A stretch of 63,145 nucleotides of DNA, filler included, from Hausera hauseri (Eukaryota), in NCBI GenBank assembly GCA_046269625.1. It is 12 parts of 12 records of this genome, joined end to end, with 100 filler letters (N's around TTAATTAATTAA, not from the genome) between each part and the next. Parts side by side here need not be neighbours in the genome. Positions count along the whole stretch, not along the records: positions 18,883 to 25,072 come from JBJURY010127539.1; 11 more parts are not named here. One strand, 5' to 3'. Within the stretch, counting starts at the first letter, position 1; the number at the start of each line of letters is the position of its first letter. Under the pieces are notes generated by a model. That model was not told where the DNA came from. It ran no database searches and saw only the letters and a program-made list of their open reading frames with translations. This document shows, in pieces, positions 4,612 through 62,900 of this stretch. A program made the position numbers and the translations under genes.

Positions 4612-4719
4612 ATATGTAAACAGTTTTGTATTTGTTACGACTTGTTGTATTTTTGTATTAATAAACCTTATAAAAAATATCGTGTTGTCTTCTTGATCAA
4701 GAAATGTCCGATAAGGCGT

Positions 4720-9921: not shown

Positions 9922-10097
9922 GTACGAGACTGTCAGCTTATGTGTGTACTATGTAAACAAAGAAAAGTGGATACGGTATTCTTAATGTGCGGCCATCTCA
10001 TTGTTTGTCAAATGTGTTCAACCACCACCAAAGAACCCACCAATGTCCAGAATGTAAATGTGCCATAATGGAAATTGTGCAAATTTATTACGAATGA
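9922..10097 (+). pseudogene. IAP/Mdm2-type C3HC4 RING finger C-terminus (frameshifted), convergent with pPolB
   Basis: Manual translation CVLCKQRKVDTVFLMCGHLIVCQMC-[fs]-QCPECKCAIMEIVQIYYE*. Confidence 0.75.
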
Positions 10098-10199
10098 CGT
10101 CGATCAAAACAGTGTCACGGACTTCAGTGACGTGGAGGTAATTTGTATCATTGTGATGAGACAATACCCATAAAGTAAATGTATATTGCTTACAATTAA

Positions 10200-13100
10200 A
10201 ACCTTCTTCTTCTTCTTCTTCTTCTTGTCCATCATAGATGCGTCGATAATCACCGTGATTTATTTCCGTCTGTTTCAGCTGGATGCCTTTTGCCCGAATT
10301 TTCGGTCCGCATTACGTCAGAAGACTGTAGCACTTTGGGCGCAAAAATATCCATTCCCTGTATTGAACCCGACCTTTACTTTCGTCCTTGAAGCATCTGA
10401 TTTTGTTTGTTATCGCGCTGCTGTACAGAGGATGGTTCTGCGGGTAGTTGGACGTGTCCAGTAGTCCATCTGACATCATTTATCGGATCAGCTGCTTTTG
10501 ATTGATGTTTTTCAGTTGAACGAAAAAGCTGTCTGTGTCACCGGCAACGATGCTAATCTCACAGCCGTCGAACGTTTGCCAGTAACGTGCCAAGTCGCGA
10601 TACTGGAGCTCGTACATTCGCAACTTTCTCAGGTCAAATACCACTTGTCCTATATAGCCTGGTCGGTCCAGCACGACTTCTTCTCTGTTTAGAAGCATAG
10701 CGACCAATCCATCGGCAAAGTGCATTAATTTCCTGAGCAGCGCCTTGCTAGTGTACGGAACCAGTCGTTTTTCGTTGTTGCACAGGCGCACATTGAACCG
10801 CTTCTTCAAATATTCCACTGTTTTTCCATACAGTGAATTGTTTACGAGCTTGTAATCGTCCTTTTTGAACTTTGTACAAGCTATGGCTCGTTTCCCGGAA
10901 TTCCCATCAATGTACGCATTGAATATCATCGCCTGATTGAGGAGGATTGCATGATGCAGCTGTGTAACGTGTACACCGAGCTGCATGTAAAACTGCAGTA
11001 GACGCTAATGAACCATGCAATTCGATTTGCGTTCATGCGTCATGAACAGCTTCTTTACTTTTGAACCCGGGTGGACATTGGCTGATTGGTGCCGCGGGTA
11101 ATTCATCCAGATCGTCATGCAACTCATCTGGTACCAAAAGATCGACTTCCATTAGGTAGCCGACTGAGCTGCTTTCTGTCGTCTTTGCTGCTGCTGCTGC
11201 TGGCAGACTGTCCAGCAATGTATCCAGTTCTTGTTTGTCCATTATCCATTCAAATGAACCGTACGGCAAGGATTGCGAAAGCTCCCAGCCGTACAGGTTA
11301 TTAATATGGATGTACAACATTGACGCTGTATCATCGTCATCACTGGTTATGTGATGCTTGTTGACAAATGTCATGCTACCGCGAATACCAACATCAAACA
11401 GCCGGTACATTTCTGGGTCTTGCAATAGCTCGATATCCCGATCCAGTAACATCAGAGCTGACGCCCAACTCATTCCGGGTATTGAGTAAAAGTGGAGCGG
11501 TTCCAACCTATCTTCCTCCAACGCTCTAGCCCGAAATGTCCGAAAAACATCGGCTAATAGGTACATGTCGAGCTTTAGATACTGAAGCATATAGTCCAAC
11601 AGGTTTCTGCAGCCGAGCTCTGCCCAAAACTACTGTGCTGTGTGATATTCTTCTTCTTCTGTGATACCGAGCCATTGCGGTGATAATTCGCTTGTCGTCT
11701 GGAGCCGCTCGTACGATATCGCAAAGTCATACGGGAATATGCCTTTGCTGCGTACAATATGCGCGGGGAACTGTGTCAGTGTTAGCGGCACATTCGACAA
11801 GGAATTTATCAGCTTTGCAAAAGACTCATTGAGGAACTGTAATGAGTCAAGGAATCGCAGCTGTAACCGGTTTATGCGTGTCGACAGAAACAGGTATTTC
11901 TCAGTCGTTGTTGAGATTATGGACAGTTCCCAGTGTGGAAATCCATTAATGGCCCATTTCAGAATATGGTGACAGTTATAACCCCTTAAGTTATGAAATA
12001 TCACCGGCAGGAATAGTCGCACCCGTCTTGCCAAATGGCATGAATTGCGTGCTGCTCCCAAGTATCAGCCAGTAAAATGATCGTGATCCGGTACGAGCCG
12101 TTCCTATGCATCGAATGGCAACATTTTGTGACACAGGTAACATTCGTCAGTGGTAGTGAAAAGCAACAGTTCATAGTCGTTTGCCCAGATCAAGGGTTTA
12201 GTGCTATTATTCCGATACCACGGCGCGATTTCCGTTTCCACTATAGTCTCCAGCTAATGTAGGAAATCATGCACACAATTCCATCCGTGGGAAACGTCGT
12301 ATTGCTGTTGTTCGTCAGCATTAATAGGCACAACCAGCATGCCGACGGCGATTGGAACATGCTTCTGGTCATACACGTTGTGCTGTAGTAGAATTGCTTT
12401 GATATCGACATATAAGACATATGACGGACTGTCCGTTTTTGACCAATCACTGAATCTTAGAGCTTTTTTGACGGGTATGACGTACATTGTTGTTCCTAAG
12501 CAATGTTTTATACACAGCGTCACATAATTTTCCATGTAATTTCTGACCTGAATCCGTGTAAACATTCAGGACACCATTTACATTGTATTCGTTTTTTGAT
12601 CAACTGGTCATGTGCCATGTTCAGCAGTATGTCTATATTTGTCACTGCAGCATAATGGAACTTTTCCTCTTGATCCAATATTGACTGTCCATTCAGGTTT
12701 CAACTGAGGTAGATTATATCCACATGTGGATTTTTGTATATCTCTTCGTCTGCCGGTATTTTAATTATTATGTTGTACCGGAACACGTTGATTGCCAGTG
12801 TCGGATTACGCCGTTCAAATGTTGCAACTGTTTTTAGTTTCATCGGAATCCAGATTTTATAGAAATCCAATTCCGAAAAATACTGCCCATACAAACTTGG
12901 ACAATTCGCATGTTGCCTGGACACTTCGATATATTTTAATACTGCTAGAATACTGTATAGAAAACAGTATTTATTATCAGTATTTTTCGAATTCACTATC
13001 GCATGTTAGTGTTTCAGAGCCTCAAGTGTCGGTAAGAATGAACGTCCGGACAGGTAAATTATGTCACTCGACTTTGTTGTAATAAAACCGAGAGTGACAA

Positions 13101-14022
13101 TTTTGATTATTCGCCATCCACTGGCTTTTTCCTTATAGTTGACAATTTTTTAGCCCCGCTTTTCGCCTACGTCGCCAATAAAATTCTCTAAATAGGACAC
13201 AGTTCCATATGACAGGTACCATTGTTTCCTGTCACCTTGATGTTTTCAAATTCTGCAAGTCCATAACAATGCACTCTGCAATGTTTGAATTTCCGCACTT
13301 CAGCTTCCAGTCGGTATCGCACACTAGACGGACATGACTCAATTGCGTTTTTGTGTTCGCGGGCATGTCCACCTTCATGTCCACGTACGATCTGTTTAGA
13401 TCGTACGTGACGGTAATGTGTGGTTCCTCCTCCTCCTACTACTCCTGCTGTTGCTGCTGTTGCAGTTGCTGCTGATTACTGCTGCTGTTTTGCGCGTATT
13501 CGTCAAGGCTTGTGGATGCTTAACGTTTCCTTGTTGTCGTTGTTGTTGCTTTTTGTTGCGTCCATGAGTATCTGCTTTTTCGACCGATTAAACTGGTTCA
13601 AGTGGTCCTTGTGTTGATTGTAGAATTGTTCATAGTTGATTTGATCATCATCATCATCATCATCAACTATAGAACAACAACCCGGACAAACATAAGCCCG
13701 TTTACCGTTCAGAGTTATGGCTGTGCCATAGTGTTGCTGCATTTCAATATGGCAACCAGCAACGTTATGCATTCTACCAGTACAGTAACGTGGGTATTTA
13801 AGACAATGCACAAGTATCATTTTCTTGGACCGCGTAAACGGCCCGAGATGATGCTTGTGCATTTCATAAAATTCGGAGTACGGGTATTGGGTTAAAATAT
13901 TGCAGGTTGGACACAAATAGCTGCCATCCGTGCCCACACCGTAATACTTCGCCATCTGCTGATGGCACTGCTCCTAATCTACATGTATGCGTGATACGCA
14001 ATACACGGGATAATGTTTGCAT
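10200..14022 (-). pseudogene. Decayed pPolB (Polinton/adintovirus), family B, with N-terminal Zn-finger-like repeats and EndoVII-like insertion
   Basis: CFLYSILA, PVIFHNLRGY, RFLDSLQFL, KGIFPYD, YLKLDMYLLADVF, INNLYGW, KLVNNSLYGK, GDTDSFF. Confidence 0.92.
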
Positions 14023-15439
14023 TTCTGAATGAGAAACAAATTAAAGTAAGCGTAAAATGCAATATATATGAATATTAACTTATTAACACTTTAAATTAAA
14101 ATAAAACTACTTCTATGGTGGGGTGATGGTGGTCTAAGGGCGACTATAAATATTTTCTACTCTCAGCATTCAATGTCACAAGTAAGATAGATGGAAGAAT
14201 ACATAGAAAGTGAGATTGAGAGATTGACCGATGACATTTTGATCGGACATGCGTTTAATGTTCAGTACCTATGTGAGCTGTCCTAAACGAGAATAATGAG
14301 CAGTAGAGAATATATTGATTTAATAGTCAGATCTCTGTTCGTAAAACGTATCGAGGATGAAATGAGACGAAAACGACAAAAACGACGTATTAATTTCCCC
14401 ACTAGACTTGTATTTATTGTTTCGCTTTGTATTGTAATGAAAAAGCTGATTGACCGTGTAAGTAGATCGCGTATCTACCATTCCGACTTCTACATCACTT
14501 GATGATTGAAAAGTTGAATTATCCATAAGATGTTTATTANNNNNNNNNNNNNNNNNNNNNNNNNNNNNNNNNNNNNNNNNNNNTTAATTAATTAANNNNN
14601 NNNNNNNNNNNNNNNNNNNNNNNNNNNNNNNNNNNNNNNTTTAAAATAAATTGATTGGGTAACTTTGATAACTTGATCCAAACTTAATAGCCAATTGAAT
14701 TCGCCAATTGATACAGTCGTCATTTCTTGTTTGAATTTGAATGTCCTCATATCGATGCCCCTTTTAACGACAACTACGTTGTTGAATAATCAATTATGAG
14801 GAATGGTATTTTTCTGTAAGCGAAATATATTTTGCTGTACCGACTACCGTGTACAACATTTAATTTAATTGATTTTTCCAGTGAATGACCATGCCAAAAG
14901 TAATTTGAATGAATCCAAATATTCTTCGAGTTAAACAAACAAGGAAAGTCACAGCCAGCTGTAGTCAAACTGCAGAAAGTCTTACATGCTATAAAAAGGG
15001 TTCAGGAGCTTATCACTGATGCTGACTTTAGAGTGTTTCGCATACTCGATTGAATTGCGTAATGTTGATAAAATGTCGGTTACTTGTAACCACGACCGTC
15101 CCATAGGAGTAGAATTTAATAATTCTGGCATAATTTTGAACGATATATATTCTTCGGGTAATTGTCCAATTAATAACAGAGCATTTCCGTGGATCAATAT
15201 TTTATGTTAGGTCAGCGACCTAGGATGCATATGTTACAAAAGTCTTCCAAAAATCTAGATTCGCAAATATTCGCAGTCGTTTTTCCATGGATAATGTAGA
15301 TAAATAATGTTTCTAACAGATACTGTAAAAATCGTTACCCAGTAGAATCCAATAGTATGAAAAAAATTCAGCGGAATGTACAAATGTTTAAGAAAATAAG
15401 TTATTCATCAGTAACATAGAGATTGGTCATTTTTCATCA

Positions 15440-17135
15440 CTATGAAGAGGGAAAACTTCTACGTGAAAGCTACAGGTTGGCATGCTAATCAGCGATTGCT
15501 GTATGAGATCGAGTCAGGATACCCACTCAACGCATAGACTCATGCATTAGAAAGCTGAAGAAACTACATGAAGAGCACTTATCCATACAGAAACACAGAA
15601 CTAAGCAACGGGAAAGTGATAGACAGAATGAAGAAATTTTTAAAAGTGAACTCAAACAGCTGCTCGATATTGCCGCAAAAGATGTTTTGACTAAACTCAA
15701 AAAGGAGAGAAGATCGAGAATTTCTACAAAATCAAAAGCGGAACGTGTTTTCTTGCAGTATGAGTGGAGTTGACCTTCAAACAACTGATAAAGAACGCAG
15801 AAAGAGACAGTGTGAGGAAAAGAAAGCCCTGGCAAAAGTAAGATATGAAGAAAGGCAGACTAAAGCAATTTCCAGTTCAACAACGGAATTTTCTTCAGTG
15901 CCATCTACTGAGTCTGAAAGCGAACATGAATATCAATCTGTGAAATCAGTGTCTATTGAAGTTACCAGTAATGATGCAGTAACAGAAACATCTAAGAATA
16001 TTTTCACATCCCCTGTGGTTGTTGGTGCTCTGGATCGAGTCAATCTTTCTGACCGGAGTGTGGTATTTGTTGCAACAGCAGAAGAAACAAAAATTTCCTT
16101 TAAAGGTCCTCTTCCTTTACACTGGAATGGAAAATTGTTACCGGATGTAGATGGGTCAAAGGTAGACCGATGTGTTATCATTGTTACTGGAAATGGAGAT
16201 GGAACGTTACTGGGTATACCAAAGATAGGGAAAGGAATAGGAGAGGCACAAGCAAATACTTGTGTTGATGCTATCAAGAAGTGGAACCTTACTTCAAACA
16301 TTGAAGGTCTTGTCTTTGATACAACAACAAGCAATACATGACTTCGTAAAGGAGCTTGTTTCCGACTTGAACATTTTTTGGGAACTGCATTAATTTGAAT
16401 CACGTGTCGCCATCATGTAATAGAAATCAAGCTGTCTGACGTCTTTTGTTGTCTGTTTGGCTCAAGTGGAAGCCCGCAAACAGAACTTTTCAAGCGATTT
16501 CAGAAGCAGTAGCCATTAATAAATAAGTCTAATTTTGCAGCTGCGAGTGATGATCTCTTTCACGATCATGCACTAGGCAATCTACATCGAACAATGCTTG
16601 ACTATTTGCCTCATGCTCTTGAAACACAACAATAAAATGTTGCGTTTGTCTCTCTTGTTCCTTTGTGCACAATACCCTGGTAAAGTAATTCGAGCACCTG
16701 GCCTACACATCACTCGCGATGGATGGGGAAAGCCATTTACGCACTGAAGTTATTCCTATTCAGAACACAGTTTCAGAACGGCAACTCAGCAGAAACGACG
16801 TACAAAAACGGCTTAAACGTACAGATGAAGCAGAACCTGTCCTGTTTGAGGATCTTGTAACACAAAGTACACAGTCACTTTCTGATCTCTTAATTAAAGA
16901 AGGATCAAAAAAAGAAAAATCATTCTTGGAGAAACACCCCGCTGAGTGGACTGATGATCCCGTTTTCAAGGATCTTTGAAACCAGGCATCCAAAGTGACT
17001 GTTGTTAACGACGCCACTGAACGTGGAATAATTCTAATTGAAAAATACAATAATACCATGGCAAAAGATGAAGAATAGAAACAGTTTGTTTTTCGACTCG
17101 TGGCAAGTCACCGAAAGAAATTTCTTAAAAGTTCT
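15440..17135 (+). mobile_element. Decayed DDE DNA transposase, hAT-like (hATm-type)
   Basis: LHWNGKLL..VDR..LLGIP..GxGEAQA..FDTTTSNT..GAC..CRHH and C-terminal VVNDATERG; several stops and frameshifts. Subfamily assignment is from memory of motifs. Confidence 0.7.
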
Positions 17136-18891
17136 TTCGTATTTTCAAAATCTACAGAATTAATATTATCTATAAGAAATTCATGAATTTTGTTCGTAGT
17201 AGATTTTAGCGTACGAAACTGTAGCAATAGTTACCAATTAATATTGAAGATTAACAAACAAATTTCACGAATTATACAACAAAATGTAAACAGTGTTCAT
17301 GGTTATGTAATAAGTGTTGGCATTTCGTAACCGAAAAATGGATCGTTTTCTTCACGTTTCAGAAAAAAACAGTATATGTCAAAGCGCATGATGGGGTGAA
17401 TTTGTTTCAATTCATGAGGAACCCATTGACGAAGAAAGTGATGAAGGATTTTCATGTGAAAAGCTATAAAAATACGATGTGCCCTTGCAACACGATGAAT
17501 TGATGATAAAGCGTAAACAAATGAATAAAATGTTGCTACGGTGCTTCCAAAACAGCGACCCCTGTCGATTCTTTACACTGACGAAAAGTTCAACAAACCC
17601 AAGATGCTAACAAATATGGTCAAGTCAAGAATGAAGAAATAAATTTTGCAAATATTGGTACTTATATACTATATCCCCGTTTAAGTATGTATCCAAATGC
17701 GTACTGGAACATTTCAATCTCCCATATTTAAGACCAATGTGTTGTCATACTCATTCCATGGTTTGTCGAAATATTCGGTAGTTTGAGTCAGATTAGCTAC
17801 AATCTATATACGACGAACCAGCAGGTGAATATCAGCAGAAACGTTCTGAAGAAGTGCCAATTAGGTATGAAGGCATAATGAGGTTGTACCATTATTATGA
17901 AGTACCACAGTTTGAACTAATAATATTTCACACAATTTTAACTCTTTTGCTGTTATCTGTGTTTACTAAATATTAACAAATTGGAATTTAATAATTCTCT
18001 GAATATTCAGAAATTTCAAGCTGGAAAAAAGATAAAAGTGCATCTGCGTGGGACCTTCTAGTAGATGTGCCAATAAAATTTTTTAGCAGTATTAGTGTGG
18101 GTGTGCATGTGTGTCAACCCACTTCCTGTTTCTAATCCTGCCCATGATTCCAGACTGGGAATCATCAAACCTAAAGCACCTATCCTAACTATAATCTTAT
18201 CTCAAAGTACAACCTCAACATCGATGTCAGTGTTGTTATGGTTGTTACGGACGCGGCTGGCTCGTGGTTTTTGCTCTTCGGCTCAAATCCCACCATTAAC
18301 AAAACTGTTCCGCTAAGTCTAAAGGAGCCTAAATGTAATATGCTATTTATTTATTTTAAAATCATAACAGAGCAACCTGCACGAAATTAACTGCAGTAGC
18401 AATCCCATCTTTATGCCGTCGCTAACATACGTACTGTGGTACCTGGCCACTAGCTGACATGGTGGAACAAACAAGAAAGATGAACAGAAATAATAAAATA
18501 TCATAGAATAATTGTACAATTAACACAACAGCAAGAGATTTCAGACAACGATCCACGTAGACACCGACTAAAGAATGGACAACATAACATATGGGCAGAT
18601 ATGTATCATACCCGGTGTGTTACTAACAGACAAACATAAAGGTGGGAAACGGTCAAAGCAAGACAACCACATACACTAGCGAACAGCGTTTCGAGTAAAG
18701 TGACTTTTTTCTGCATTCTTCCCAGGAAGTGCATTGTAATAGTATTCTGATTTAGTATTAACTAAAGAGTTAACTATTTTAANNNNNNNNNNNNNNNNNN
18801 NNNNNNNNNNNNNNNNNNNNNNNNNNTTAATTAATTAANNNNNNNNNNNNNNNNNNNNNNNNNNNNNNNNNNNNNNNNNNNNATCAGACTT

Positions 18892-19690
18892 CTATAACAA
18901 TTTTTCTTTATCCATTAGTCTATTAGCACATGATATCTGATGAGTTTTACTATGGTCCGATCGATAAAATCTATCGCCACAAACTTGGCACTGAAACAAT
19001 TGTAATTTTAAATGTTCTTTGCGCTTGTGTCTCGTTAAGTGGTCTGAACGAGTAAAGGATTTTCCACACTCTGTTCCATAGGTTTGAATAAATTTACAAA
19101 CGTATAGTTTCTCTCCTATGTGAATTCTGATGTGTGCTTTCAAATGAGCACAATTCATATAGGCTTTGAAACAATCTGAATGAGGACACCGAAAATTTCT
19201 TGGAGCACCAGTTGATAAATTTTTTGCGATAGAAAATCGTCGTACAGTTTGGATGGGTTTTCCTAACTGATTTCATATTTAGTGGCATCATCACATTCCG
19301 GTGGAAGTTGGGATGTAACTGTGACTGTTGGTGTTCGATTAACAATTTGAGTGACAGATGAATATACGAAATTGGGTGGTAAAGATGCAATGAAGGATGG
19401 GTTTGACTGCTGGAGAGATCGATTGATGAAGAGCACCGGCTGAGAATTGACGATGAGACGTTGAGGAGTCATTGATGACTAAATCTTAACGGGAATCTGA
19501 ATTTGGGATAGAGAAGGATTGGAGAATCCGTTGGTGACGACATTTGATGTCCTTAACTGTAAAACGTTTGAGCTAAGATTGACCGACAGTGATGAATGAG
19601 ATGGAGGAATGGGCAACTTTAAGTGGCTTGATATGTACATGTTCTGTAATTCGGATAAAGCGATAGCGTACTGCGGCACATGTGAATTTG
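18892..19690 (-). pseudogene. Intronless decayed KLF/Sp-family C2H2 zinc-finger transcription factor copy
   Basis: S/P/Q-rich N-terminus then three fingers: CPHSDCFKAY..HLKAHIRIH(I)GEK, CGKSFTRSDHLTRH, CQVCGDRFYRSDH; in-frame TAGs at 19479 and 19263, frameshift near 19220. Confidence 0.85.
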
Positions 19691-19706
19691 TCAGAGTGCT
19701 GTCGTA

Positions 19707-22700
19707 ATTTCTTTCGAGGCGGAAGATCGCGGCCCGCCTGTGGGCCCGACGCGACGGCGGCGGACGCCCAGTCGTGTCCAACCAAAAGGGCCAGAAGGCA
19801 CCGGCCGCTGTGAGCACCACATCACCCCCCCTCCGTGGCAAAACAAAAACTATGAAGGGTAAAAAGAAGGAAAAAAACGCAAAACGAAAAAGTGTCTGTG
19901 TTAGCTGGCCTTAGTGTTGACAAGATGTTGGGTGCCTTCTGGTGACTTTTCCCTGCTATATTTGCTGAATGTGACTCTGCGTGTTTTGTTTTTAACCTGC
20001 GTGTTTGTTTGCACAGGTTTAAGTTGGGAAAAACATTATTGGATTTTGTTGTAAGTGTTGTGTCGTGCGAAGATGAATCAGAATGAAGAGAAGAAGGTGA
20101 AGGAGAAAGAGAGATTGTTGAAGATGAATGGTTAAAGGTATTCAAGAAAGTGTTAGAAGATGGAGGGATGATAAAAGGTGTAGTGGCGGATAAAGGAAAA
20201 GAAAGAGAAGTTGTAGTAGAGGTTGGAATTTAATTGTGTGAGAGAGTGGAAGTAGAAGATGAAACATAAGTTGTAGTAGAGAGGAAAAGGGATAGGGAAA
20301 TAGGTAAAGAGAAGAAAGTTAAAGGTGATGTGTGAGGAGAAAGAGGGAAGAAAGCGTCGAAGATGAAGAAGGTGTGGAACGACAGGGAGAGAAAAAGAGA
20401 AAGTAACGAAGAGGTACAAGACGAAAGAGAGCGAGAAGATAGAGAAGGCAAAGGAAACTAGTTGTAGGGTGGTGTGCAAGAGGTTGGAATGATGAAAGGT
20501 GTAGATAGAGAGATTGCTGAAGTCGAAATGGTGTTTGATGGAGGAAGTGCTGTAAAAGGAGTAAGCAGGTTGTGAGAAGATGAAGGAGGTGATGGAAAGA
20601 TTGAAGGTGAAAAATCGGATGGGGAGAAAGAAGCTGAATTGTTTAAAAAAATTGAAGTGGAAGTTTTGGGAAAAAATGTAGGCGAAAGTGGGTTGAAGAA
20701 CTAAGCAGAGATAGAAGGTGGATTGTTAGATTGCTGCGCGTCGTGTAAAGATGTTGGTCGAGAAGTGGTTTCGATGGGAGACGTGTCGTCAACGAAGAAG
20801 GCCGGTTTAGCATTATGGATGTGAACGGTTACTTCTTTGTCGTTTTTGAGGATAATGATGTTGTGGGAGTGCAAGCGAATTACTTTGTAAGGGCCGACAT
20901 ACTGAGGTTGAAAGTAACACGGCGTCTGATTCCTTAGCCAAACGAACTTGGCTGTATGTAAATCGTCTGGTATGTAGGGTTTATTTGCGTGTAACAATCT
21001 GCAAAATGAGTCTTTGCTGATCTCAACGAAGTGTCTCTGTGCCGCTTGTATGGTTTTGTCGGTAGGAGTATTGTCCAGCTCAGTCAGCTCGACTAATGAT
21101 CTGATGAAAGTGCCAAATAATGCTTCTGCAGGTGAACAGCAAGTAGAAGTTGATGGTGTGTTCCGCGAGCCAAGCAGAACGTACGGAAGTAGTGTAGTCC
21201 AACTGCAATTGGACTCAGCAAGAATTTTAAGAGACGTTTTCATTGTTCGGTGAAAGCGATCGAGAAGGCCGTTCGATTGGGGATGGTATGGTGATGTGTG
21301 AATGTGGTTTATTGCCAATTGATTGACAAGAGCTTTAGATAGGTTGGATTCGAACTGTGGACCTTGGTCCGAAATGATATGACGAGGTGATCCAAACCTG
21401 CTGACACAAGTGCGGATGAAAACGTCTGCAATGGTTTCTGTGTTGGTGCTCCGAAGCGGGACAGCCTCTGGCCATCGCGAGGAACGGTCTATCATTGTGA
21501 GGATGAACTGATGGCCGTTATCTAAGGGTAGTGGGCCTACAAGGTCAATGTGAACAGATTCAAAACGAGACGTGCAGGGAAAATGATATTGTAGTGCCTA
21601 ACCCATGCCTGCACGTCAGAGCGCATCGACGGCCATACTACTTGGCGTTGGTAGAGGCGAAAAGTGGCCTTGGCACGAGGATGATGCAGCGAATGTACGC
21701 TGTGGAACGCTTCCTTTGAAGCGATTCAAAAAGAATAATTTTGGGATTATTAGGTTTGAAGGTGTCAAAGGCTACACCGTCGATGGTTTTGCAAGATTTA
21801 AAAGATTTAAGGATGTCAGGAGGTGGCTGGTTTTGTTGAAGCTTGGTTTGAGGAAAAATTAATGTAAAATCAATCGAGCTGACCGATCGGGACAAAAAGT
21901 TAGCTACTAAATTGTCGACTCTGTTTAAATGTTTAATTTGAAAACTAAATGTTGACAAATACGATATTTGCCTCTCCTGACGTGGCGAAGGCGATATCAT
22001 GGTGAGAATTTGAAGCAAGGGCTTGTGGTCCGTTTGTATGGTAAAAGTTCGTGCAGTTAGGAGATGTTTAGTGTCTTACGGCAAGGACCATTGTTAGAAA
22101 CTCGCGGTCAAAGGTGGAATACCGTTTTTCTTGTGCTGTGAATTTTCGAGAGAAAAACTCTAATGGCTCATGGAATCCATTTTTGACTTGATGGAGGACA
22201 GCATCTGCAGCTGTTGTGGATGCATCCGTGGTTAAGAAAAGTTCTGCACGGTAGTCCGGATAAGCCAGGATTTCAACCGTTTTTAAATTTTCTTTGAGAC
22301 GATCGAAAGCACTGACTAAATTGGCGGCCCATTGAATAAGCTGTTTCTTCTTGCCAGAGCTTAGTGATGCAAATGGAGCGGTTAGAGTGGAACAGTGCGG
22401 AACGTACTTATGAATAAAGTGCAAGGTTCCTAGGAAAGAACGCATCTCTGTGGATGTGCATGGTAGTTGTATGTTTTTGAGCTGAGTGATGCGATCCGGC
22501 TGAGGTGAATGTCCAGAGGAGCTAATAACGTGTCCTAGGAAATTGACCTTATGTTGAAAAACGATGCATTTGGAGAAGTTAATTTGCAACTTGTTTTGGT
22601 GCAAGAGCTGGGAGATTAAACGTAAGTGTTCAGAGTGTTGCTTGGGGGAAGATGAGGCAATTAAGATGTCATCAATATAGGGATACGAGAAGTCTAAGCC

Positions 22701-23800
22701 TTATAATACTGTGTCGATATTACTTTGGAAAGTCTGAGAAGCGCTGCGGAGTCCAAAAGGCATAAAGAGATACTCGAAAAGGCCGAAAGGTGTAATGACA
22801 GCCCTTTTGGGAATGTGTTCTGGTGCTACCGGAATTTGGTGTTATGCTTTATATAGATCAATGCAGGAATAGACGGTTGCACCATAAAGCCTGTGAAGGA
22901 TATCGTTGACTAATGGTAGAGGGTAGGCATCAATTGTTGTTATGGTGTTGAGTTGGCGGTAATCACCGAATGGGCGAAAGGTGCAATCTTTTTTTGGAAC
23001 CACATGCAGTGGTGAAGACCAGGGTGATTTGGATCTTTTGATTATTCCTGATTTTTCAAGGTCGAGAAACTCAGACTCCACTGCCTGTCTGCGGCGAGGC
23101 GATAGCGGGCGGACCTTTTGCCGGATTGGTCGTTGATGTGCAGTTACGATGTGATGAAAGGTGGATTGAGGTGGTACGAATGATTTGTCCTTTTGCAACA
23201 GACGCGTGTCGGAAGACGAAATATATTGCTGTAAGTCAGAGGGCAACGATGAGAAGTTTTCAGATGGTGTCGATGCCTCGTGACTGGATGCAGTTGAGGT
23301 ATGTGTTGTAGACAAGGTGTTGCGACTAGGTGGTATTTGGTGCAGGATGTTCGTATTGAAAATGGTGTTGGCAGCTGTGCTATTAGTAATGGGTGCCACG
23401 CAGTTGGCAATATCGCATTTGTCACCGTAATAAAAAATTTCTATATAATAAATGATTATGAAAATAATTCATATCAATAGTATTTTCTTTAGTACTGACT
23501 TACTGGACTCGATCGCCGGGGTGGTCATCGAAATTCTGCTGATTTGATTAATATTATTTCCACTTTTTAAGGAACATTGTTTGCAATCTACAAGTAAATT
23601 GTAGTGAGACAGAAAGTCTGAATCCAATATAGGTGTGCGTACATTAGCTATTGTAAATTTCCATGTGAATATGTTTGTGAAGTATGGGATAGTGAATGTT
23701 AATGTGGTAACTCCAAAAATTTGTAAGGGTTCACCGGACGCAGTGAACAGTTACTTTTTTGAAGTGTGAATGACACAGCCTGGTGGATCTGAGAAGAGCT
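19707..23800 (-). mobile_element. Decayed CsRn1-like gypsy element (family G1): partial protease, RT, RNase H, integrase, S/P/T-rich tail, PPT, LTR head
   Basis: SPWSSPLHVVPKKD, GDYRQLN, YIDDILIAS, TTDAS, FDREFL, SDQGPQFES, YHPQSNG, GPY; PPT GGAGGGGGGGTGA (19822-19834) then TGTGGTGC (from 19821). Confidence 0.93.
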
Positions 23801-25072
23801 GGGAATTTTGGTTGAACACAGTCTAGCCGTAACCGAATGTACTAGCTGCTTTGTTCACATCTCCAGTACCGGAATGCGGTTCCTGCGGAGGTAGAACTGG
23901 CATCGATGGGCTCGAATGATGCCAAGATAAACTGGCTTTTTCCTGATTACTTTTTCCAACGTAACAACCGGACATGAACATTTGGCCGGAAATATTATCA
24001 GACACGACGTTTACTGGCGCTTTTATAGTGTCTGCTGTGGCGTTGCACACTTTTTTGTACCTGGCGTTCTGGACAACTGCCAAATCAACCTCGTGTGGAT
24101 TCATCAACACGGTGGGATCCGTGCCCACTATATGCAGAACGGGCAGTTGAGAAAACGAATAACCCTGATTAATCGAAGTCGACTCAAGGGATTCTCGCTG
24201 TTCCTGACTCTGCAAAAGACTGCTTATTTCATTATTCGCTGCACCCGATTCACTGTCGAAACTCGACTGAGCCGGACTAAACTGTAAAACAGCGTACTGG
24301 GAGTGTTGTCGAGGCTGCACCGGAGGTGCTAACGTTAACGGGGTATGACTGTATTCGAATGCATTGTTATATTGTTTCGTCTCTGTCACATTTGATATTT
24401 TCTGAGTAAGCTTAAATCGTAACTTTATGCTACCGGTCGATTTCGACGGCGGCGGGGACTCGCACTTTGGTGACTGTGCTCATTCCGAAGAAAGCCTTAG
24501 TATTAATGGAGGACTTTTCACAACCGATGGACTGAATTTCTTATTGTTACTTGGCGACCGCAGCTGCGGAACGCGTCTTGGTTTTACTTCTGTTGATACA
24601 GTTATTGCACTGCTACGGCGATCTTCTTTTCTTGTACAGAAAATGTGCTTTGAATTTGTTTCTCTTGGCAATTTTTCGGGTTTCTGGATCGGTGGTGGCG
24701 CCAATGGCTTTTAATGCAATTGACGAGCAGGCTTTGGTGGTGTTTTTTTGATGGTAGACTCAACAATTTCTAACTGCGGTAGACGAATACGCATTTTTAA
24801 CGACTCTGTAGACTCCATCATGGCAGTTGAATAGCAGTGAATACAGATTGTCTATTACGTTTCTTGGTAGCTAAAGTCCGCAGCCAAAGAAACCTGTCCA
24901 TGGATTTGTTCACGAATTTTGTCGATTTTTCACCATATTTCTTTTTATTTCGACTCATGCGGATTACTAATTTTCAATGATAAACCACCAATTTCTTTAT
25001 ATGTACTTTTTATGCAGATAGACTTTTCTTTCCTTTCAGTCATAGCAGATGGAACTTCAATTATGCGTGAAT
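23800..25072 (-). pseudogene. Decayed fragment of an unidentified S/P-rich cellular-type protein, occupying the position of gag
   Basis: ORFs 24480-24704 and 23823-24389 share a frame, separated by single stops; no gag motifs; abuts the C-terminal half of the protease. Confidence 0.45.
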
Positions 25073-25176
25073 NNNNNNNNNNNNNNNNNNNNNNNNNNNN
25101 NNNNNNNNNNNNNNNNTTAATTAATTAANNNNNNNNNNNNNNNNNNNNNNNNNNNNNNNNNNNNNNNNNNNNGAAT

Positions 25177-25295
25177 GTGTCTAGTTAGTAAGCGTTGGTC
25201 GGAAGTATGGTGGTTTGTGGGAAATGATCTGTTAGTAATCATGTATCTAGTTAGTAATCGTGTGTCTAGTTAATAATCGCGTGTCGACTGTTCGT
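25177..25295. repeat. Short degenerate tandem repeat (tgtctagttagtaatcg-like unit)
   Basis: About 4 imperfect copies. Confidence 0.5.
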
Positions 25296-25499
25296 GTCAG
25301 TCGACTTTCAGTCGTAAACAAAACGGACTTTTTGTCCGTATGCTGTCTGTTAGCGACGGCCATGTCGGCTTTTTAGTGAAAACGTCCTTGCTTTAACTCT
25401 ACCAGACCGCTGTGCCAATTTTTCGGTAATTTCCTAATCTGCTGCTAGACCGCTGGACCTAATTTTCAGTACTTTGCCTACTGCGTGAGAACTCCCAAA

Positions 25500-25567: not shown

Positions 25568-26013
25568 CTCTAATGTGAAAGAATGTTCACATATACCTCA
25601 CACACACATCACACTTTCTCATTTTTATCTCACGAAAGTGAAGATCAGAAAATACTGACTACCTTCATTTTAAAAGTGAGCTCAGACGCATCAGAAATAA
25701 ATAGCAAGAGATACCTATAAAATCAATGGTTTACTATACAATATTTGAGTTTATATTACAATGCTATTTTCGCTTAAAAGAATATTCACAAACGCAAACA
25801 CCGTGCATTAATTCAGTAGCTAAACTGGTGGAAATATTGTTGATGCATTGTTCAGCACGATAATTATTTTGTTCAGCAGGAAATGTGTCATTTCAAATTT
25901 ATATAAAAATTACATAAATTTAATACTTCAAAAATTAATTATATCTATTTAATTTGTTACAATATTCGTAATTTTCTATCATTATTTTTTCTCAATCACT
26001 TAGTGTTTTGTCA

Positions 26014-29000
26014 ATGAATAAGCTTGAAAAAATCCAATTTGACAGTCTTCTCAATAAGATTACTCAGGAGATTGAAAATCATTTTAATAAAACTAGTCCA
26101 AATGGAGCGAAATTTCTTTTAGCTAATGCTTTAGAATCGAAATCCGATCAGGAGTTTATTAAAAAAATTCCACCAGGAATGTCGGTAACATTTCTGAAAA
26201 ATATTTTCGATGTCACGAAACGAATGACTCCGAAGGGTGGATTTAAAGATTATGAAAAGTTGTTACGACCCAATAAAGGCGAAAATAAATCGGAAATCGT
26301 TGTATCAAATGACACTGGAAAAAATGCTGAAAAGAAAGCGTTACTGCCGTGTTTAGCATTGGAAAACACAAACATTATGGAAGTTGAAAAGGAAACTTCC
26401 GATGAATATATTAGGAATTTGAATCCGGAAACTCTGCAGCAGATTCACGACGTTTTGGAAAATGAGAAAATCAAATCATTAAAACAAAACGCTAGATCGT
26501 CTTCATCAGATCGATCACGATCCAGATCCCGTGACAGACGTGATAAAAGACACGACAGAAAACATCGAAAGAATCATCATAAATCTCGATCTAATTCACG
26601 AGACAAACATCACAACAGGCGTTCAAGAAGAAGTCGATCAAAATCTCTTGAACGAACAGATCGGTCAGAAATGAGTCGTCCGCAAGTCGGTAAAGTATAC
26701 AAAGGTTCAGTAACAAGTTTACGGCACAATGCATTGTTTGTTCGTCTGTCAGGATTTAGCAGGAATGTCGAAGGTATGGTGCACATATCAAATTTACGCA
26801 GCTATCGTGTAAGTGACGTTAAAGATGTCGTTTCAATGGGGGAGAGAGTCTACGTTAAAGTGATGTCAATCGAAAATAATCGCATCAAATTAAGTATGAA
26901 ATTGGTGGATCAGAAAACCGGCAAAGATCTGCTGGATGATATTCAACAAGATCGAATCAGAAATCCGGATAAACCAGAAATATACGGCAATAATCAGTCG
27001 AATGACCAACATCTCCACAGTCCAACGAAACGAAAGGTTCAACGAATCAGTAGTCCAGAACGATGGGAATTGCGGCAAATGGCAAGTGCCGGTGTATTGA
27101 AACTATCGGATCATCCAAACTACATTGAGGGTAACGATCTGATGGAGGAAGATGACGAATCAGACGAGGATGTTGAAATAGAGTTAGTCGAAGAAGAACC
27201 AGTATTTCTCACTGGACAAGGGAAACAAGCCATCGAATTGTCGCCAGTGAGAATCGTAAAGAATCCTGATGGTTCTCTGCAGAATGCGGCAATGATGCAG
27301 ACAGCACTCCAGAAACAACGTCGCGAAATTAAGCAGCAGGAAAAACAGAGCGAACAAATGTCGAAGGATGCCGGCCAACGATCGATGGGTAAAGATTGGC
27401 ATGATCCTGCTTCTTTGAACATGAGTAACACTGTGGATTCGAGATTCAGCAAAAGTGAAAAGTATTCCGACGTTCCCGAATGGAAGAAATACGTGTCGAG
27501 TGGCGTTGGCGGTCGAGGTGCATCAACACTGATGTTGAATAAGTCGATACTCGAACAGCGTCAGAGTCTACCAATTTACAAATTGCGTGATGAATTATTA
27601 ATGGCCATAGCAGTAAAGAACGTGTTAGTCGTTCTCGGAGAAACTGGTAGTGGGAAAACGACTCAAATCACTCAGTATATTGCCGAAGCCGGATTGTCAT
27701 CCAACGGAAAGATTGCTTGCACTCAGCCGAGAAGAGTTGCAGCGAAATCTGTTGCTAAACGTGTAGCAGATGAATTTGGCTGTCTGCTTGGTCAAGAAGT
27801 CGGCTACACTATTCGATTTGAAGATATGACGACACCGGACACTAAAATTAAATATATGACTGATGGAATGTTGCTACGGGAGTGTTTAATAGATCCAGAA
27901 TTGAAACAATATTCTGTAATCATGCTCGACGAAGCACACGAACGGACGATCCATACTGATGTTCTTTTTGGTCTTTTGAAGAAAGCATCTGCCGAACGGA
28001 ACGACTTAAAACTAATTGTTACATCGGCAACACTAAATTCTGTGAAATTCTCTGAATATTTCTTCAGTGCGCCAATATTCCGTATTCCTGGTCGAACGTA
28101 CGAGGTCGAAGTGCTGTACAGTATTGAGCCGCAACAAGATTATCTGGAGGCAAGTCTCAATACGGTGATGCACATCCATCTCACAGAACCACCCGGTGAT
28201 ATTCTACTGTTTCTTACTGGACAGGAAGAAATTGACACGTGTTGCGAGATCATATTCAATCGAATTAAAGCACTCGGACCAGAATGCCCCGAACTGATTA
28301 TTTTACCTGTATATTCGGCAATGCCATCAGAACATCAGTCGCGTATATTTGATCCGGCCCCACCAAACGCGCGTAAATTGGTGATCGCGACCAACATAGC
28401 AGAAACAAGTCTAACAATTGATGGAATATACTACGTAATCGACCCTGGATTTGTTAAACAGAAAGTGTACAATAGCAAATCTGGAATGGATCAACTCATC
28501 GTCACTCCCATTTCTCAAGCGCAGGCTGATCAGAGAAAAGGTCGTGCAGGTCGAACTGGCCCAGGAAAATGTTTTCGACTGTACACTGAGCGAGCATTCA
28601 TGGACGAAATGCTGCCGAATAACGTTCCAGAAATTCAACGTACAAACTTAGCGAGCACTGTACTGCAGTTGAAAGCAATGGGAATTAATGATTTGCTGAC
28701 ATTTGACTTTATGGACGCTCCCCCGACCCAGACATTGGTAAAGGCAATGACCGAATTACACGCATTATCCGCACTGGATGATGAAGGACTCCTGACAAAA
28801 TTGGGCAGAAAGATGGCAGAATTTCCCTTGGAGCCAATGTTGTCAAAGATGTTAATAATGTCTGTTCATCTCGGCTGCAGTGAGGAAATACTAACGATCG
28901 TCTCCATGCTTAGTGTCGAGCCAGCCTTCTATCGTCCGAAGGACAAGGCCGATGCAGCGGATCAGAAAAAGGCCAAATTTAATCAACCGGAAGGTGATCA

Positions 29001-29556
29001 TATCACATTACTCGCTGTTTACAATGCGTGGAAGAACAGCAAATTCAGCACACCATGGTGCTACGACAATTTCATACAGTCCAGGTCCTTAAAGCACGCG
29101 CAGGACGTTCGTAAGCAACTTCTAGGTATCATGGACAGGTATGGTTTAAAAGTGATTAGCTGCGGGAAAAACACAGGGCTCATCCAAAAGGCAATTGTGT
29201 CAGGTTTCTTCAGAAATGCAGCAAGGAAAGATCCACAGGAAGGTTATCGGACGCTCGTTGACCAGCAAGTTGTTCACATCCATCCTTCGAGCTCATTGTT
29301 CCATCGTCAGCCCGATTGGGTCATGTTCCACGAACTTATTCTTACATCAAAGGAATACATGCGAGAAGTTACGACCATTGATCCTAAATGGTTAGTGGAG
29401 TTTGCTCCAAAGTTTTTCAAATTCGCTGATCCAACGAAACTTAGTCAGTCCAAGAAATCTCAGAAGATTGAACCATTGTACAATCGTTTTGAAGATAAAG
29501 ATGCTTGGCGAATCTCTAGAGTGCCTAAAACGTTTCATGTCAAAACTACATTTTGA
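26014..29556 (+). CDS. DHX8: Pre-mRNA splicing DEAH-box RNA helicase DHX8/PRP22, intact and intronless
   Basis: Uninterrupted 1180-aa ORF from ATG 26014: RS domain, S1 domain (GKVYKG..EGMVHIS), [40 protein letters not shown]2, and C-terminal [25 protein letters not shown] at 29574-29579. Confidence 0.97.
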
Positions 29557-29716
29557 AAAACTTTTTTATTGTTAATAAAAAGTATCTTGTTGTATGTTGT
29601 GAGTTGCAGGCTTAATNNNNNNNNNNNNNNNNNNNNNNNNNNNNNNNNNNNNNNNNNNNNTTAATTAATTAANNNNNNNNNNNNNNNNNNNNNNNNNNNN
29701 NNNNNNNNNNNNNNNN

Positions 29717-32719: not shown

Positions 32720-33430
32720 AGAACCTCACCCACCTGAGTTTGAATATCTAAGTCCTGGATGTAGAATTTGGACACAACTGAAGTGTTTTCCCCAGTGAAC
32801 CATCCTTCTTGATCAGATGAACACCGGTCTCGTAGACACCTCTCGAATATTGGTTCTGAGGTTTTCGATAGCATTTCAATTAGACTTTTGCTGAGTATTT
32901 AGATTTCCAAGTTGATATCTTGTTTTCGAGTCATCGTTTCGAATTTCTTAGCAGTCTTCTCCAATTCTTTGTTCTGTTCAGCCTTTTTTCTTTTGCAATT
33001 CATCGAGCCACATGTCATACCTTTTCAGTTCATGATCCTCGTCATCAACATTCACATTTCCCGATCCAATGTCATTATCTTCTACAGATACGTCATCGAC
33101 ATCGGCTTTGTTCATTGGATGTGAAACTGATTCAACAGACGATGTATCAGCTGGATGTGAATCGAACAAAGTTGTTTGATAATCGTACTCGTTGTATTCC
33201 GCAGGTTTATTCTCTTGATCAACCAAATAAAACAACAACGAATCACTCGACAAGTTAACTTCAAAATACAAATTATTCATCGATTCATCCTTTTTTCTTC
33301 ACCATCGGCAAACGACAATATTTTTGTCTGTCTGCTCACAAAACGTACGTTTTTCTTCAACGATTTCTTTATCGGTAGACAGTCTGTTACACTTTCTTTA
33401 CAAACCATGTTAAGAAGCGACGCTGAAGTT
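32720..33430 (-). pseudogene. Second unidentified cellular-type gene fragment (acidic region plus coiled coil) joined to the supervillin fragment
   Basis: ORF 32978-33280 lies in the supervillin frame after one TAA but lacks gelsolin-repeat motifs; continues via a frameshift towards ~32720. Confidence 0.4.
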
Positions 33431-33434
33431 TAAT

Positions 33435-35620: not shown

Positions 35621-36150
35621 ANNNNNNNNNNTAAAACATTTTGTATTTGACTGTCAAAATTTTCAATTATTAAATCATTAAAAGAAATCAATTTTTTAAA
35701 CCTTCCATTCATACATACATTCAAACTAATATAACTATATACATCAAATATACATAAAGAAAAAGTTGTAGACAAAACAGAAACGTCCATGTTTTATGCA
35801 CTGGTAATTATCGTTTCCCTCCAAAATTAAAATATTAAATTTATCGTTTTATCAGTATTAGACCGGTAAATATGTGCATGTTTTTTTTTGATTATTTCTG
35901 CGGATGATTTACGTGCTGAATATTTATTCGTCAATGGGCCTAACATACCGTCATTTTTATCATCAAAGTCGAATTTCCGTCTCATTACCAGATTTCCACG
36001 TCTTACCCAGATTCGATTCGTCATCGTTTTTCGGACCCGGTGATTTTCTAGCACCAAGCTGACATCCACTGTCTCCAAATGACTTTCTTGGCAAACTCGG
36101 ATTTACCGACGACCGAAATGACGTCGAATAATCCAAGTTCACTAAAGATG

Positions 36151-36634
36151 ATTTCCGCTTTAAAACACGGTGGGAGAAATTCTCTCACCGACTCGACAGC
36201 CTCGAACAGTGCAGCCACGTACCAGGCACCACATCACCCCCCCCCGTGGCAAGACGAAGACTATGAACAGAAGGAAATGAATGGAAATTATAGTAGGAAA
36301 AAGAATAGCTTATACCTATTCGGCTTTGGTACGTGTTAGACGTTGGACTCCATCTATGAACTTCTCCCTCTTGTAAGTGCCGAGCGTCACATTACGTGAT
36401 CTGTTAGATGTTGCTAGTACTTGTGGATTTGTTCGAGGGAGAGATACTGTGGATTTTGTAATACTGGAAGATGCTTCATGAAGAGTTGAAAGTGGAGAGG
36501 AAGCTGAAAACGGAAAAGGATGACGCGAAGAAGGCGATAATGGCGATTGGAGCGATTCGTCCAATGACGGTGAAAGGAGTAGTAGGTGTGCAGGCGATGA
36601 TGGCGAAGTAAGTGGTGAATGAGCAGTAAACGAT
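36151..36634 (-). mobile_element. 3' end of another G1 gypsy copy: pol tail, PPT (36234-36246), LTR head from 36233
   Basis: Tail peptide RNVTLGTYKREKFIDGVQRL is homologous to RRVTFSKYSREKSVQGVQRL at ~60150-60230; the plus strand gcaccacatcaccccc..gtggca nearly matches 19814-19840. Confidence 0.85.
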
Positions 36635-37069
36635 NNNNNNNNNNNNNNNNNNNNNNNNNNNNNNNNNNNNNNNNNNNNTTAATTAATTAANNNNNNNNNN
36701 NNNNNNNNNNNNNNNNNNNNNNNNNNNNNNNNNNTGTGGTATTAAATCACCAGTGTGGAAGTTGAGGAAGTTTACCCTAATGAATTGACTTTAGCTTATG
36801 ATTTGTAATAAAATTTATTTGAGTTTTTGGTGTTGTGTTTTATTGCGTTGTGAAAAGTATTTGAGTTTTTGAGTAATATAAAATTTTTTTTGGTAACCCA
36901 ACTTAAGCCCCATTTCCTTGTTATAAAACAGAAGACAAAAGTTAGTGTACAAATACGTTATTGATTACATGTACAGCAGAATAATGTAAAACAAACAAAG
37001 ATCACAAAAGTCAGTGATCTGGCTGGTTGGTCTGAATTGCATCTTTGTACTGATTGGACTGTTATTTTG

Positions 37070-50703: not shown

Positions 50704-50724
50704 AACTGTGTATTAACAAAACAA

Positions 50725-59948: not shown

Positions 59949-62900
59949 ATTGCCGCTTTAAAGCGGAAAACCGGGGGCCCGCCTATGCGCCCCACGCTCC
60001 CGCAGCAGAAAACCCGGCCGTGCCCAACCGAATGGGCCGGAGGGTGACGATCGATGCGGGCTCCACATACCCCCTCCAATAGCAATGTTAAAACTATAAA
60101 GAATAAAAGATAGAGAGAAAAACCGCAAAACGAACATGTGTTTGTGTCAGTTGCGCTTAGTGTGTATAAGACGTTGAACACCTTGAACTGATTTTTCCCT
60201 ACTATACTTGCTGAATGTGACTCTGCGTGTTGTGTGTTTATGCAATGTGTTTGTTTGCAGAGGTTGAGGCTGGGGAAAAATTGTTAGATTTTGGTGTAGG
60301 TGGTGTGTTGTGCAAAGATAAGTCAGAATAAAGAGAAGAAGAAAACGAAAAAGGAAGAGGGATTGCCAAAGACAAATGGTTAAAGGCATTGAAAAGATTG
60401 TTAGAAGGCGAAGGAGTGATGAAAAATGTAGTGGCGGATAAAGGAAGAAAGAAAAGAGTCGGAGTGGAGATTGGAATTGTGTTGAGTGAAAGAGTGGAAG
60501 AAAAAGATTATCCAGAAGGAGTCGTATGAATAGAAGTAGAAAGTGTAGAAAATGGCGGAGCATGACTAGGCGTAGAAGTGGAAGGTGGAAATGATGTAGC
60601 AATAGATGTAGGAATAAAAGGGAGTGGAGGCGTGAGAAAAGAAGTTGACGTGTCGGTTGATAAGGTGTCGTTGACAAAGAAAGCGGGCTTTAAGTTGGCG
60701 ATGTGTACTGTAAGGTCTTTGCCGTCTTTAGAGATGATGGCGTTGTGTGAGTGCAGCTGTATCAGTTTATAAGGCCCCAGGTACCGCGGCTGAAAACTCC
60801 AAGGCGCTTGATTCTTTAGCCATACGAATTTAGCCTTATACAAATCTTCGGGTAAGTATGTTTTGTCTGTGTGAAGTATCCTTCAAAACGAATCTTTGCT
60901 GACCTCGACGAAGTGATTTTGCGCCGCCCGTATCGTCTCATCTGTGGGAGTGTCATCTAGGGCGGTTAGTTCGAATAATGATCGGACAGGAGCTCCGAGT
61001 AAGGTTTTATCAGGTGAGCATCCTGTAGAAGTGGACGGAGTGTTCCGCCAGCCGAGCAGAACGAACGGAAGAAGATTCGTCCAACTACTGTTGAACTCTG
61101 CGAGGATTCGTAGTGACGTTTTCAGTGTTCGGTGGAAACATTCTAGAAGGCCATTCGATTGGAGATGATAAGGTGCAGTATGAATGTGGTGGATCCCCAA
61201 TCGGTTAACAAGGGATTAAAACAGGTTAGACTCAAACTGTAGACCTTGGTCCGTGATGATGAAACGAGGTGATCCAAACCTGCTAATCCATGTGCGAATG
61301 AAAACGTCAGATATGATGTCGGTGTTTGTGCTCCACAAAGGGATGGCTTCTGGCCATCGGAAGGAACGGTCCATCATGGTGAGAATGAATTGATGTCCGT
61401 TGTCTGGAGGAAGAGGGCAAAAGATGTCAATATGCACGGACTCGAAACGCGATGTGCAGGGAAAGTGGAATAGTGGTTTGGTGGAAACGTTTAGCTGTTT
61501 TGTATTTTTGGCAAGCCACACACTCCTTAACCCATGCCTGCACATCAGAACGCATTGGCGGCCATATTACTTGTTGATGGAGTAGACGAAAGGTGGCTTT
61601 AGCACCAGGATGGTGTAGTGAATGCACGCTGTGAAAAGCTTGCCTTTGCAATGATGGTGCTAGAATTATTACGGAATGGCCTGGTTTGTAGGTGTCTAAA
61701 GCCACCCCGTCAACGATTGTGCAAGTCTTAAAAGACTTAAGCATGTCTCGAGGTGGCTGGTTCTGTTGAAGTTGGTCTTGTGTAAAGATCGGTGAAAAGT
61801 TAATCGAACCAACCGACCTAGATAAAAAATCAGCAACTAAATTGTTAACCCCGTTGATATGTTTAATATCAAAGTTAAATGCCGATAAGTATGACATTTG
61901 TCCTTCTTGGCGTGTGTAAGGGTGTTTCATGGCCATGATGTTAAGTAAAGGCTTGTGATCCGTTTGTAGAGTGAAATGACGAGCTACGAGTATATGTCAG
62001 AAATGCTTTAAAGCGAGAACGATGGCCAATAGTTTACGATCGAACGTGGAATATCTAGTTTCAGGTGCTGCTAGCTTGCGAGAGAAAAATTCATATGGTT
62101 GATTTTTTCCTTTGTTGATCTGGTGGAGTACAGTGCCTACAGAAGTGGTTGAAGAGTCTGTAGTAAGGATGAGTTATGCATCAGGCTTGGGAAAAGCTAG
62201 AATATCGACAGTTTTGATGCCATCGAGTAGCTTATCGAATTTTTCAACCAATTCAGGTGTCTACTAGATTGGCTGGTGTTTTTTGCCGCCGCTTAGGTTT
62301 GCGAATGGAGCTGTCAATTCGGAGCAATAGGGTACATATTTATGTACAAAGTGTAGTGTACCTAGGAAGCTGCGCATTTCGGTGGTTGTACGTGGTAACT
62401 GGATGTTTTTAAGAGCTTCGATGCAGTCCAATTGGGGAGAATGACCGTCTGGTGTAATAATGTGGCCTAAAAGGTTAATGCGCTTTTTGAAAAAATCGAA
62501 TTTGTCGAAATTAATCTGGAGATTATGATGGTTAAGATGTTGGAATATTGCACGAAAGTGTTCTTCGTGTTGTTTGGCAGAATATCATCGATTTAAGGGT
62601 GTGCAAACGGGAAGTCTGAAAGAATTGAATCGATGTGGCGCTGAAAAGTTTGTGCAGCATTCTGCAAACCGAATGGCATAAAGATGTATTCATAGAGACT
62701 AAAAGGAGTAGTTACTGCAGTTTTTTCTATGTCTTCGGGTGCTATCGGTATTTGATGGTATGCTTTAGGTAAATCAATGGTTGAATAGATGGTGGTTGAA
62801 TTAAGACAATGCAAAATATCTTTTATGAGTGGTAAATGGTCCGCATCCATAATAGTCAAGTTATTAAGTTGTCGGTAGTCACCGCATTGTCTAAAAGTAC

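Follow-up and report, generated by a model that had tools for sequence, protein, structure and literature searches.

How did a gene for a KLF-type transcription factor come to lie directly behind the polypurine tract (PPT) and LTR head of a decayed retrotransposon, and has it multiplied with the element? We addressed this in a stretch of 63,145 nucleotides from Hausera hauseri (the window), composed of 12 small contigs with spacer blocks between them, in which the KLF locus is the left end of the contig at 18883-25072. The KLF at this locus is co-mobilised, and most likely a passenger that occupies a cargo slot present in the LTR throughout the family.

The element end and its sister copies

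The element carries a decayed Ty3/gypsy pol, whose order (protease-RT-RNase H-integrase) is as expected for this group (Table 1). RT, RNase H and integrase were placed with Pfam, and the protease by its motif and by tblastx against copy 3 alone. Reading frames and tblastx against the sister copies showed pol to be interrupted by 3 stops and shifted in frame at 3 points. The LTR head begins with TGATGTGG from 19824 (minus strand), immediately after the PPT, and its TG start fits a Ty3/gypsy LTR. There are exactly three PPT-TGTGG sites in the whole window (regions of 19834, 60074 and 36245), one in each of the three element ends that we call copy 1 (the KLF locus), copy 2 and copy 3.

Table 1. 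Features of the KLF locus and of the two sister element ends in the window.
Feature	Position	Strand	Basis
Three-finger KLF-type DNA-binding domain and stop	18892..19222	-	Pfam zf-C2H2; structure comparison; Cys/His spacing
KLF N-terminal region, Pro/Ser/Thr-rich	19223..19718	-	frame reading; TAGs at 19481 and 19265; Pfam silent
LTR head, likely U3, starts TG, 71% GC, common to copy 2	19719..19824	-	sequence comparison; U3 role putative
Polypurine tract (PPT) GGAGGGGGGG	19825..19834	-	sequence; same motif at 60074 and 36245
Pyrimidine-rich 3' untranslated region, common to sister copies	19835..20700	-	74.7% over 569 nt to 59963-60526; strand skew
Decayed Ty3/gypsy pol (protease remnant, RT, RNase H, integrase)	20701..23750	-	Pfam RVT_1, RT_RNaseH_2, rve; tblastx
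Copy 3 element end: 3' region, PPT, first LTR bases common (36226-36405)	36150..36405	-	sequence comparison
Copy 2 element end, then GPCR-like remnant to 58679	59963..60526	-	74.7% identity up to 19719; GPCR by eye

The heads of copies 1 and 2 are identical in 75 of 106 columns, and similarity between these copies ends at the same point (19719 in copy 1); over the next 100 bp identity is 47.7%, compared to 48.0% in shuffles. A preliminary description of this DNA had placed the KLF frame about 115 bp past the PPT, in agreement with this loss of similarity to the sister end. At the head end, copies 2 and 3 have TTTAAAGCGG (the TTTAAAG motif of both sister copies) and copy 1 has a degenerate form; we read TTTAAAGCGG as a putative TATA-like motif. 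No common LTR end (CA) closing the head was found in the three copies.

Behind each of the three element ends lies a different host-like frame, always in the sense of the element. The GPCR-like remnant behind copy 2 (58679-59960, minus strand) shows hydrophobic segments and a seventh-helix-like motif at the contig end; its label is a by-eye reading, and Pfam gave no match. Behind the head of copy 3 there are about 3.4 kb with a supervillin-like remnant and more sequence of coding-like character (32750-36150, minus strand; Gelsolin repeat at 34096-34794, E=5e-13), followed by gag-protease-RT of a related element, and no clear PBS, second head or LTR tail was found between this head and the next gag.

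The contig of copy 1 ends 9 bp after the KLF stop, and holds only the 5' joint of the KLF unit; the distal LTR end, PBS and target-site duplication would lie beyond it. On its 5' side the element of copy 1 is joined at the protease to an unrelated frame and not to KLF; paired LTRs are therefore not seen, which counts against a reading of capture into the LTR. This neighbouring frame (23826-24881, minus strand) is decayed, host-like and Pro/Ser/Lys-rich, and is joined in sense to the protease where gag would be expected. It gave no Pfam match, and the Atlas gave none for 23826-24479.

Copies of the joint in public sequencing runs

We compared contigs from four of the six public runs matching the stretch (X1-X4), none of which is on record as RNA. 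As a reference we took DHX8/PRP22 (25972-29556, plus strand), which is intact, intronless and at single-copy depth in X1. This run, which may be related to the source of the window, contains DHX8 as one 2281-bp contig with 2 differences and a depth of 13.9, showing that the same species is present in it. Single KLF contigs of X1 at 19118 and 19222 have depths of 738 and 776, so that the ratio of KLF to DHX8, which is one of depth and not a copy count, is 53-56 for single contigs and 84-211 for summed bins. In X2-X4, KLF contigs occur at depths of 3.7-25 and DHX8 is nearly absent (bins 26067-29616 mostly 0), the pattern that a repeat would give when coverage is thin.

Two contigs from other runs cross the junction between head and KLF. 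Record 25 of X4 (19124-19764) has 45 letters on the head side and differs from the window by 8.6%, and record 18 of X3 (19439-19750) has 31 letters on the head side and differs by 11.2%. Being diverged from the window, they indicate that the joint exists in other copies. At least two such contigs occur among the 32 matches listed. Record 9 of X2 extends, unbranched, 1840 letters past the contig end, so that the repeated unit, counted from the PPT, measures about 2.8 kb or more. The part of the contig 5' of the element (23851-25072) reaches a depth of only 6-18x in X1, and X2-X4 contain almost none of it; the low depth of this part implies that the contig was not amplified as a single block. 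The host-like frame at 23826-24881 is present in X1 at 6-18x, as copies 85-90% identical.

KLF was likely amplified together with the element. Co-mobilisation, which the preliminary description had proposed, is supported by a depth about 55 times that of DHX8 and by the X3 and X4 contigs over the junction.

The 5' part of DHX8 (26067-26662) has extra diverged copies, with up to 8 contigs and a depth of up to 120, as if front pieces of DHX8 mRNA had also been captured.

The KLF frame: identity, decay and search for a parent

The frame behind the head is about 827 bp long (minus strand) and unbroken by introns, with the fingers at 19188-18928 and the stop at 18894-18892. From the first Cys at 19188, the spacing is C-X4-C-X12-H-X3-H-X7-C-X9-C-X7-D-X4-H-X4-H-X7-C-X2-C-X12-H-X3-C; finger 2 thus has C-X9-C and H-X4-H, and the final ligand is a Cys. 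Among solved structures with three to four fingers, the best scores were obtained for WT1 (72 bits), KLF4 (62), KLF5 (61) and EGR1 (54), and longer multi-finger proteins outscore these only through summed repeats.

According to the definition given in the available part of Presnell et al. (2015, PMC4558859), KLF/SP proteins have three C-terminal fingers with a strict 81-residue pattern ending in H-X3-H. Our frame agrees with KLF as defined there in having only three fingers, at the C-terminus, a C-X4-C first finger, X7 linkers and the canonical Asp of finger 2 (C-X7-D-X4-H), but C-X9-C, H-X4-H and the terminal Cys ligand break the 81-residue spacing. The longer spacing is common to other copies, as X3 record 17 shows no gap besides the one at 19222. 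The Btd box of the SP subfamily (C-X-C-P-X-C) occurs neither in the N-terminal frame nor in the 28 residues preceding the first Cys, the N-terminal region (19223-19718) gave no Pfam match, and the strict SID motif is absent from the KLF frame, with only a loose ALSEL. Judged by spacing, the fingers are KLF-like and fall outside strict KLF membership, as would those of triclad Klf4l.

Planarian Klf4l is required for germ cells and yolk progenitors (PMC9286257, available part). The S1 Fig legend of that paper describes five additional residues in its finger 2, present in seven triclads, absent from two polyclads and called triclad-specific. Our finger 2 resembles it in having five extra residues between its two Cys, by count alone, but it carries a sixth extra residue, and the host is not placed among triclads. 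The length of our frame (827 bp) is similar to that of two planarian Klf4l proteins, which align over 265 residues (PMC12654950, available part). A link between the element-borne KLF and this germ-line regulator is therefore possible from the residue count, as a lead and not as orthology.

As the preliminary description stated, the frame is open from the PPT through the head into the KLF N-terminus, and two TAGs and a frameshift interrupt KLF. We find the frame open from 19910 to the first TAG at 19481-19479, the second TAG at 19265 and the frame change near 19222. The open frame through PPT and head carries no weight as support for capture: in composition shuffles it arises with a chance of 52% (19841-19720) or 21% (19910-19720), which is expected because the head has 71% GC. 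The first in-frame ATG is at 19640, with none upstream of it in frame, and base 19640 differs from the window in every compared contig (4/4 runs); this ATG is thus private to copy 1. A fusion protein of head and KLF was considered and rejected, given the chance-level openness and the lack of ATG 19640 in the other contigs.

Behind the head, the open stretches of 79 codons (P=0.015) and 71 codons (P=0.037) are longer than chance would give, and there are 2 stops in the KLF frame vs 7 and 4 in the other frames. These open stretches indicate that the KLF coding sequence probably extends close to the junction with the head. Its decay resembles that of the element, as had been proposed: KLF has 3 breaks in 828 bp and pol 6 in about 3047 bp, and these rates are compatible (P=0.22). 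The absence of introns was also correctly described, yet it is weak evidence for retrocopying since the native DHX8 likewise lacks them.

At least one of these breaks is not common to other copies. The frameshift near 19222 is missing from the main contig of 4/4 runs, and in contigs of other copies net length differences preserve the frame in the stretches 18883-19399 and 19439-19750, with a single net off-frame gap in X4 record 25. The window alleles at 19118, 19584 and 19640 were not seen in X1 contigs; the breaks of copy 1 are nevertheless probably real, because over the 2281 bp compared at DHX8 the assembly shows just 2 differences. Divergence from the contigs was 4.3-5.1% in the fingers vs 8.4-11.2% in the N-terminal region (Fisher P=0.0007, 0.06 and 0.09 in three non-independent runs). 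This lower divergence of the fingers is not predicted for a purely neutral passenger, and could alternatively be caused by CpG density (4.6 per 100 bp in the N-terminal region vs 2.9 in the fingers) or by mixed subfamilies.

No parent KLF was found across searches of proteins, viral contigs and metagenomes. Among longer proteins, 3 of 14 candidates were retained, all of them generic finger proteins; proteins of near length gave 0 of 2 candidates and viral contigs 0 of 4. The best 150 matches in a representative protein library were multi-finger proteins, with the best single stretches being of SP/KLF type (P0230, 62 bits; P0220, 52 bits). In metagenomes the PPT motif had 0 matches and the fingers 1 of 108 candidates, an unrelated multi-finger gene (L001). 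A search of the Atlas with the fingers returned generic C2H2 clusters, with a KLF9 fragment at rank 5, and a scan of the window for a second KLF found none.

Origin of the cargo

We favour, with a probability of roughly 0.6, that KLF was captured from a host mRNA into the terminal repeat, behind the PPT and a 106-bp head, and afterwards amplified there as a passenger. What we observe is its position, its orientation in the sense of the element, its high depth, a junction common to other copies and a frameshift that the main contigs lack; the mechanism that follows is inferred. The head would be U3 and the KLF cargo would occupy the position of R. During the first (minus-strand) transfer, reverse transcriptase would copy a co-packaged host mRNA and then rejoin the element RNA at the U3/R boundary, leaving a nearly full-length KLF message as R; plus-strand synthesis would copy KLF into both LTRs. 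From then on KLF would be transcribed from the promoter of the head and inherited by all daughter elements. Transcription of KLF from the LTR promoter, as the preliminary description proposed, is plausible from its position and sense, but the TTTAAAG motif is degenerate in copy 1. Germ-line or stem cells, in which the element replicates, probably contained much KLF mRNA, and the cargo would most likely be of no lasting benefit, decaying along with the element.

For LTR elements, both template switching and secondary amplification have been established (PMC5131818, sections 5 and 10). In the available parts of the same paper (Tan et al., 2016), 15 of 15 fly cases of LTR-mediated retroposition have some of their internal ORF sequence replaced by the retrocopy, and retrocopies are partial (median 26% of the transcript) with few insertion sites (one to five copies for Bs1). 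Our locus agrees with these in joining host coding sequence to an LTR retrotransposon, in the sense orientation that is usual among them, and in being re-amplified from a common switch point (ratio of 53-56, two bridging contigs). Unlike in the cases described there, pol, the 3' UTR and the PPT are all in place with KLF on their 3' side, internal ORFs are not replaced, and the cargo looks near full length, at about 55x depth and at a recurring point of the LTR. The captured ORFs covered in the available part of Arkhipova and Yushenova (2019, PMC6431247) are located downstream of pol, around env or between LTRs. With the capture of oncogenes and accessory ORFs treated there, our locus has in common that a regulatory host gene was transduced by an LTR element. 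The analogy with oncogene capture drawn in the preliminary description holds for this transduction in kind, but not further: KLF is one cargo among several, it lies behind the PPT and not inside the element, and a benefit was not seen.

Gene capture by LTR elements is thus already known as a process, and a KLF cargo in the terminal repeat is a variant of it. In the literature covered (titles and abstract openings, with subscription journals mostly outside this coverage), we found no capture in or behind an LTR and no amplified transcription-factor cargo, which is weak evidence of novelty. Genes inside U3 exist, such as MMTV sag, and are not known to be recent copies of host mRNA. Known captures by LTR elements lie within the element and have few copies; new at this locus is that a nearly whole transcription-factor gene passed through the slot and reached tens of copies by depth. 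With a cargo slot behind a promoter-bearing head, captured genes would acquire a promoter and be doubled in each cycle, and standard LTR finders would miss or mis-annotate the family. Element-borne copies will inflate KLF gene counts in this genome, and tens of such copies make the choice between neutral passenger and selected regulator clearly testable.

The closest competitor, which we consider unlikely, shares its product with the template switch and differs in the first step: an element with a short LTR would have inserted just upstream of a native, possibly intronless KLF and, by read-through, the gene would have become part of R and then been amplified, a route nearer to textbook oncogene capture. 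It would fit a near-full-length frame that begins close to the junction, the occurrence of intronless native genes (DHX8) and the continuation of the unit for 1.84 kb past the stop, which could be genomic flank. But no common CA-type LTR end closes the head in the three copies, and 3/3 ends directly precede sense coding-like sequence, which would need strong targeting to gene starts.

Rather less probable is that KLF is a functional accessory gene kept by selection, activating a GC-rich LTR or favouring carrier germ-line cells, with only copy 1 dead. Self-activation through GC boxes was rejected, as the heads contain no more GC-box-like motifs than chance would give (P=0.35, 0.65 and 1.0). ATG 19640 is missing from other copies and no start was located, X4 record 25 has its net off-frame gap, the other cargoes are unrelated genes, and the higher CpG density of the N-terminal region weighs against reading the divergence contrast as selection. 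These points stand against the frameshift missing from the main contig in 4/4 runs, the net lengths that keep the frame, the lower divergence of the fingers and the five extra finger 2 residues, which match the planarian Klf4l count (PMC9286257, S1 Fig legend). We hold as equally doubtful the specific form in which a Klf4l orthologue would have been captured into a flatworm gypsy LTR as a working, trans-activator-like accessory gene in dozens of copies, driving the GC-rich promoter of the element or shifting cells to a germ-line fate. If true, a working KLF accessory gene would be the retrotransposon counterpart of a viral oncogene or of a host-derived trans-activator.

Capture from mRNA also has to be weighed against a native KLF locus with an old upstream insertion, later multiplied at the DNA level by tandem or segmental duplication or by another transposon. 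This is very unlikely given the low depth of 23851-25072 in X1 and its near absence from X2-X4, and given that sister ends have the same layout with other genes, even if a parent was not found, intronless native genes occur and the far flank lies beyond the contig. An assembly chimera, wrongly joining a repeat to a host gene, might be suspected in a window built of 12 small contigs, and X1 contigs lack the window alleles at 19118, 19584 and 19640, but it is largely refuted by the independent X3 and X4 contigs spanning the junction and by the accuracy of the assembly at DHX8.

Other observations concern the rest of the window. In a tree of 26 rows chosen from 120 listed matches, with no free-living flatworm included, DHX8 is a long-branched sister to trematodes and cestodes (support 100/99), which makes the host probably a flatworm that belongs to neither group. 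The start of the DHX8 contig is a short repeat (25173-25470) with a summed X1 depth of up to 140,000. Another gypsy-type element (41392-48229, minus strand) has long frames after its integrase (41777-42385 and 47218-47835) that may be envelope-like. A transposase-like remnant at 15691-16341 (plus strand) was recognised by eye, with no Pfam match. Finally, repeat pairs (D2-D8) and translations reveal decayed DNA-polymerase-B-type frames of two families (9922-14539, 36735-41100, 48330-53536 and 2413-4615), which we take to be Polinton/adintovirus-like.
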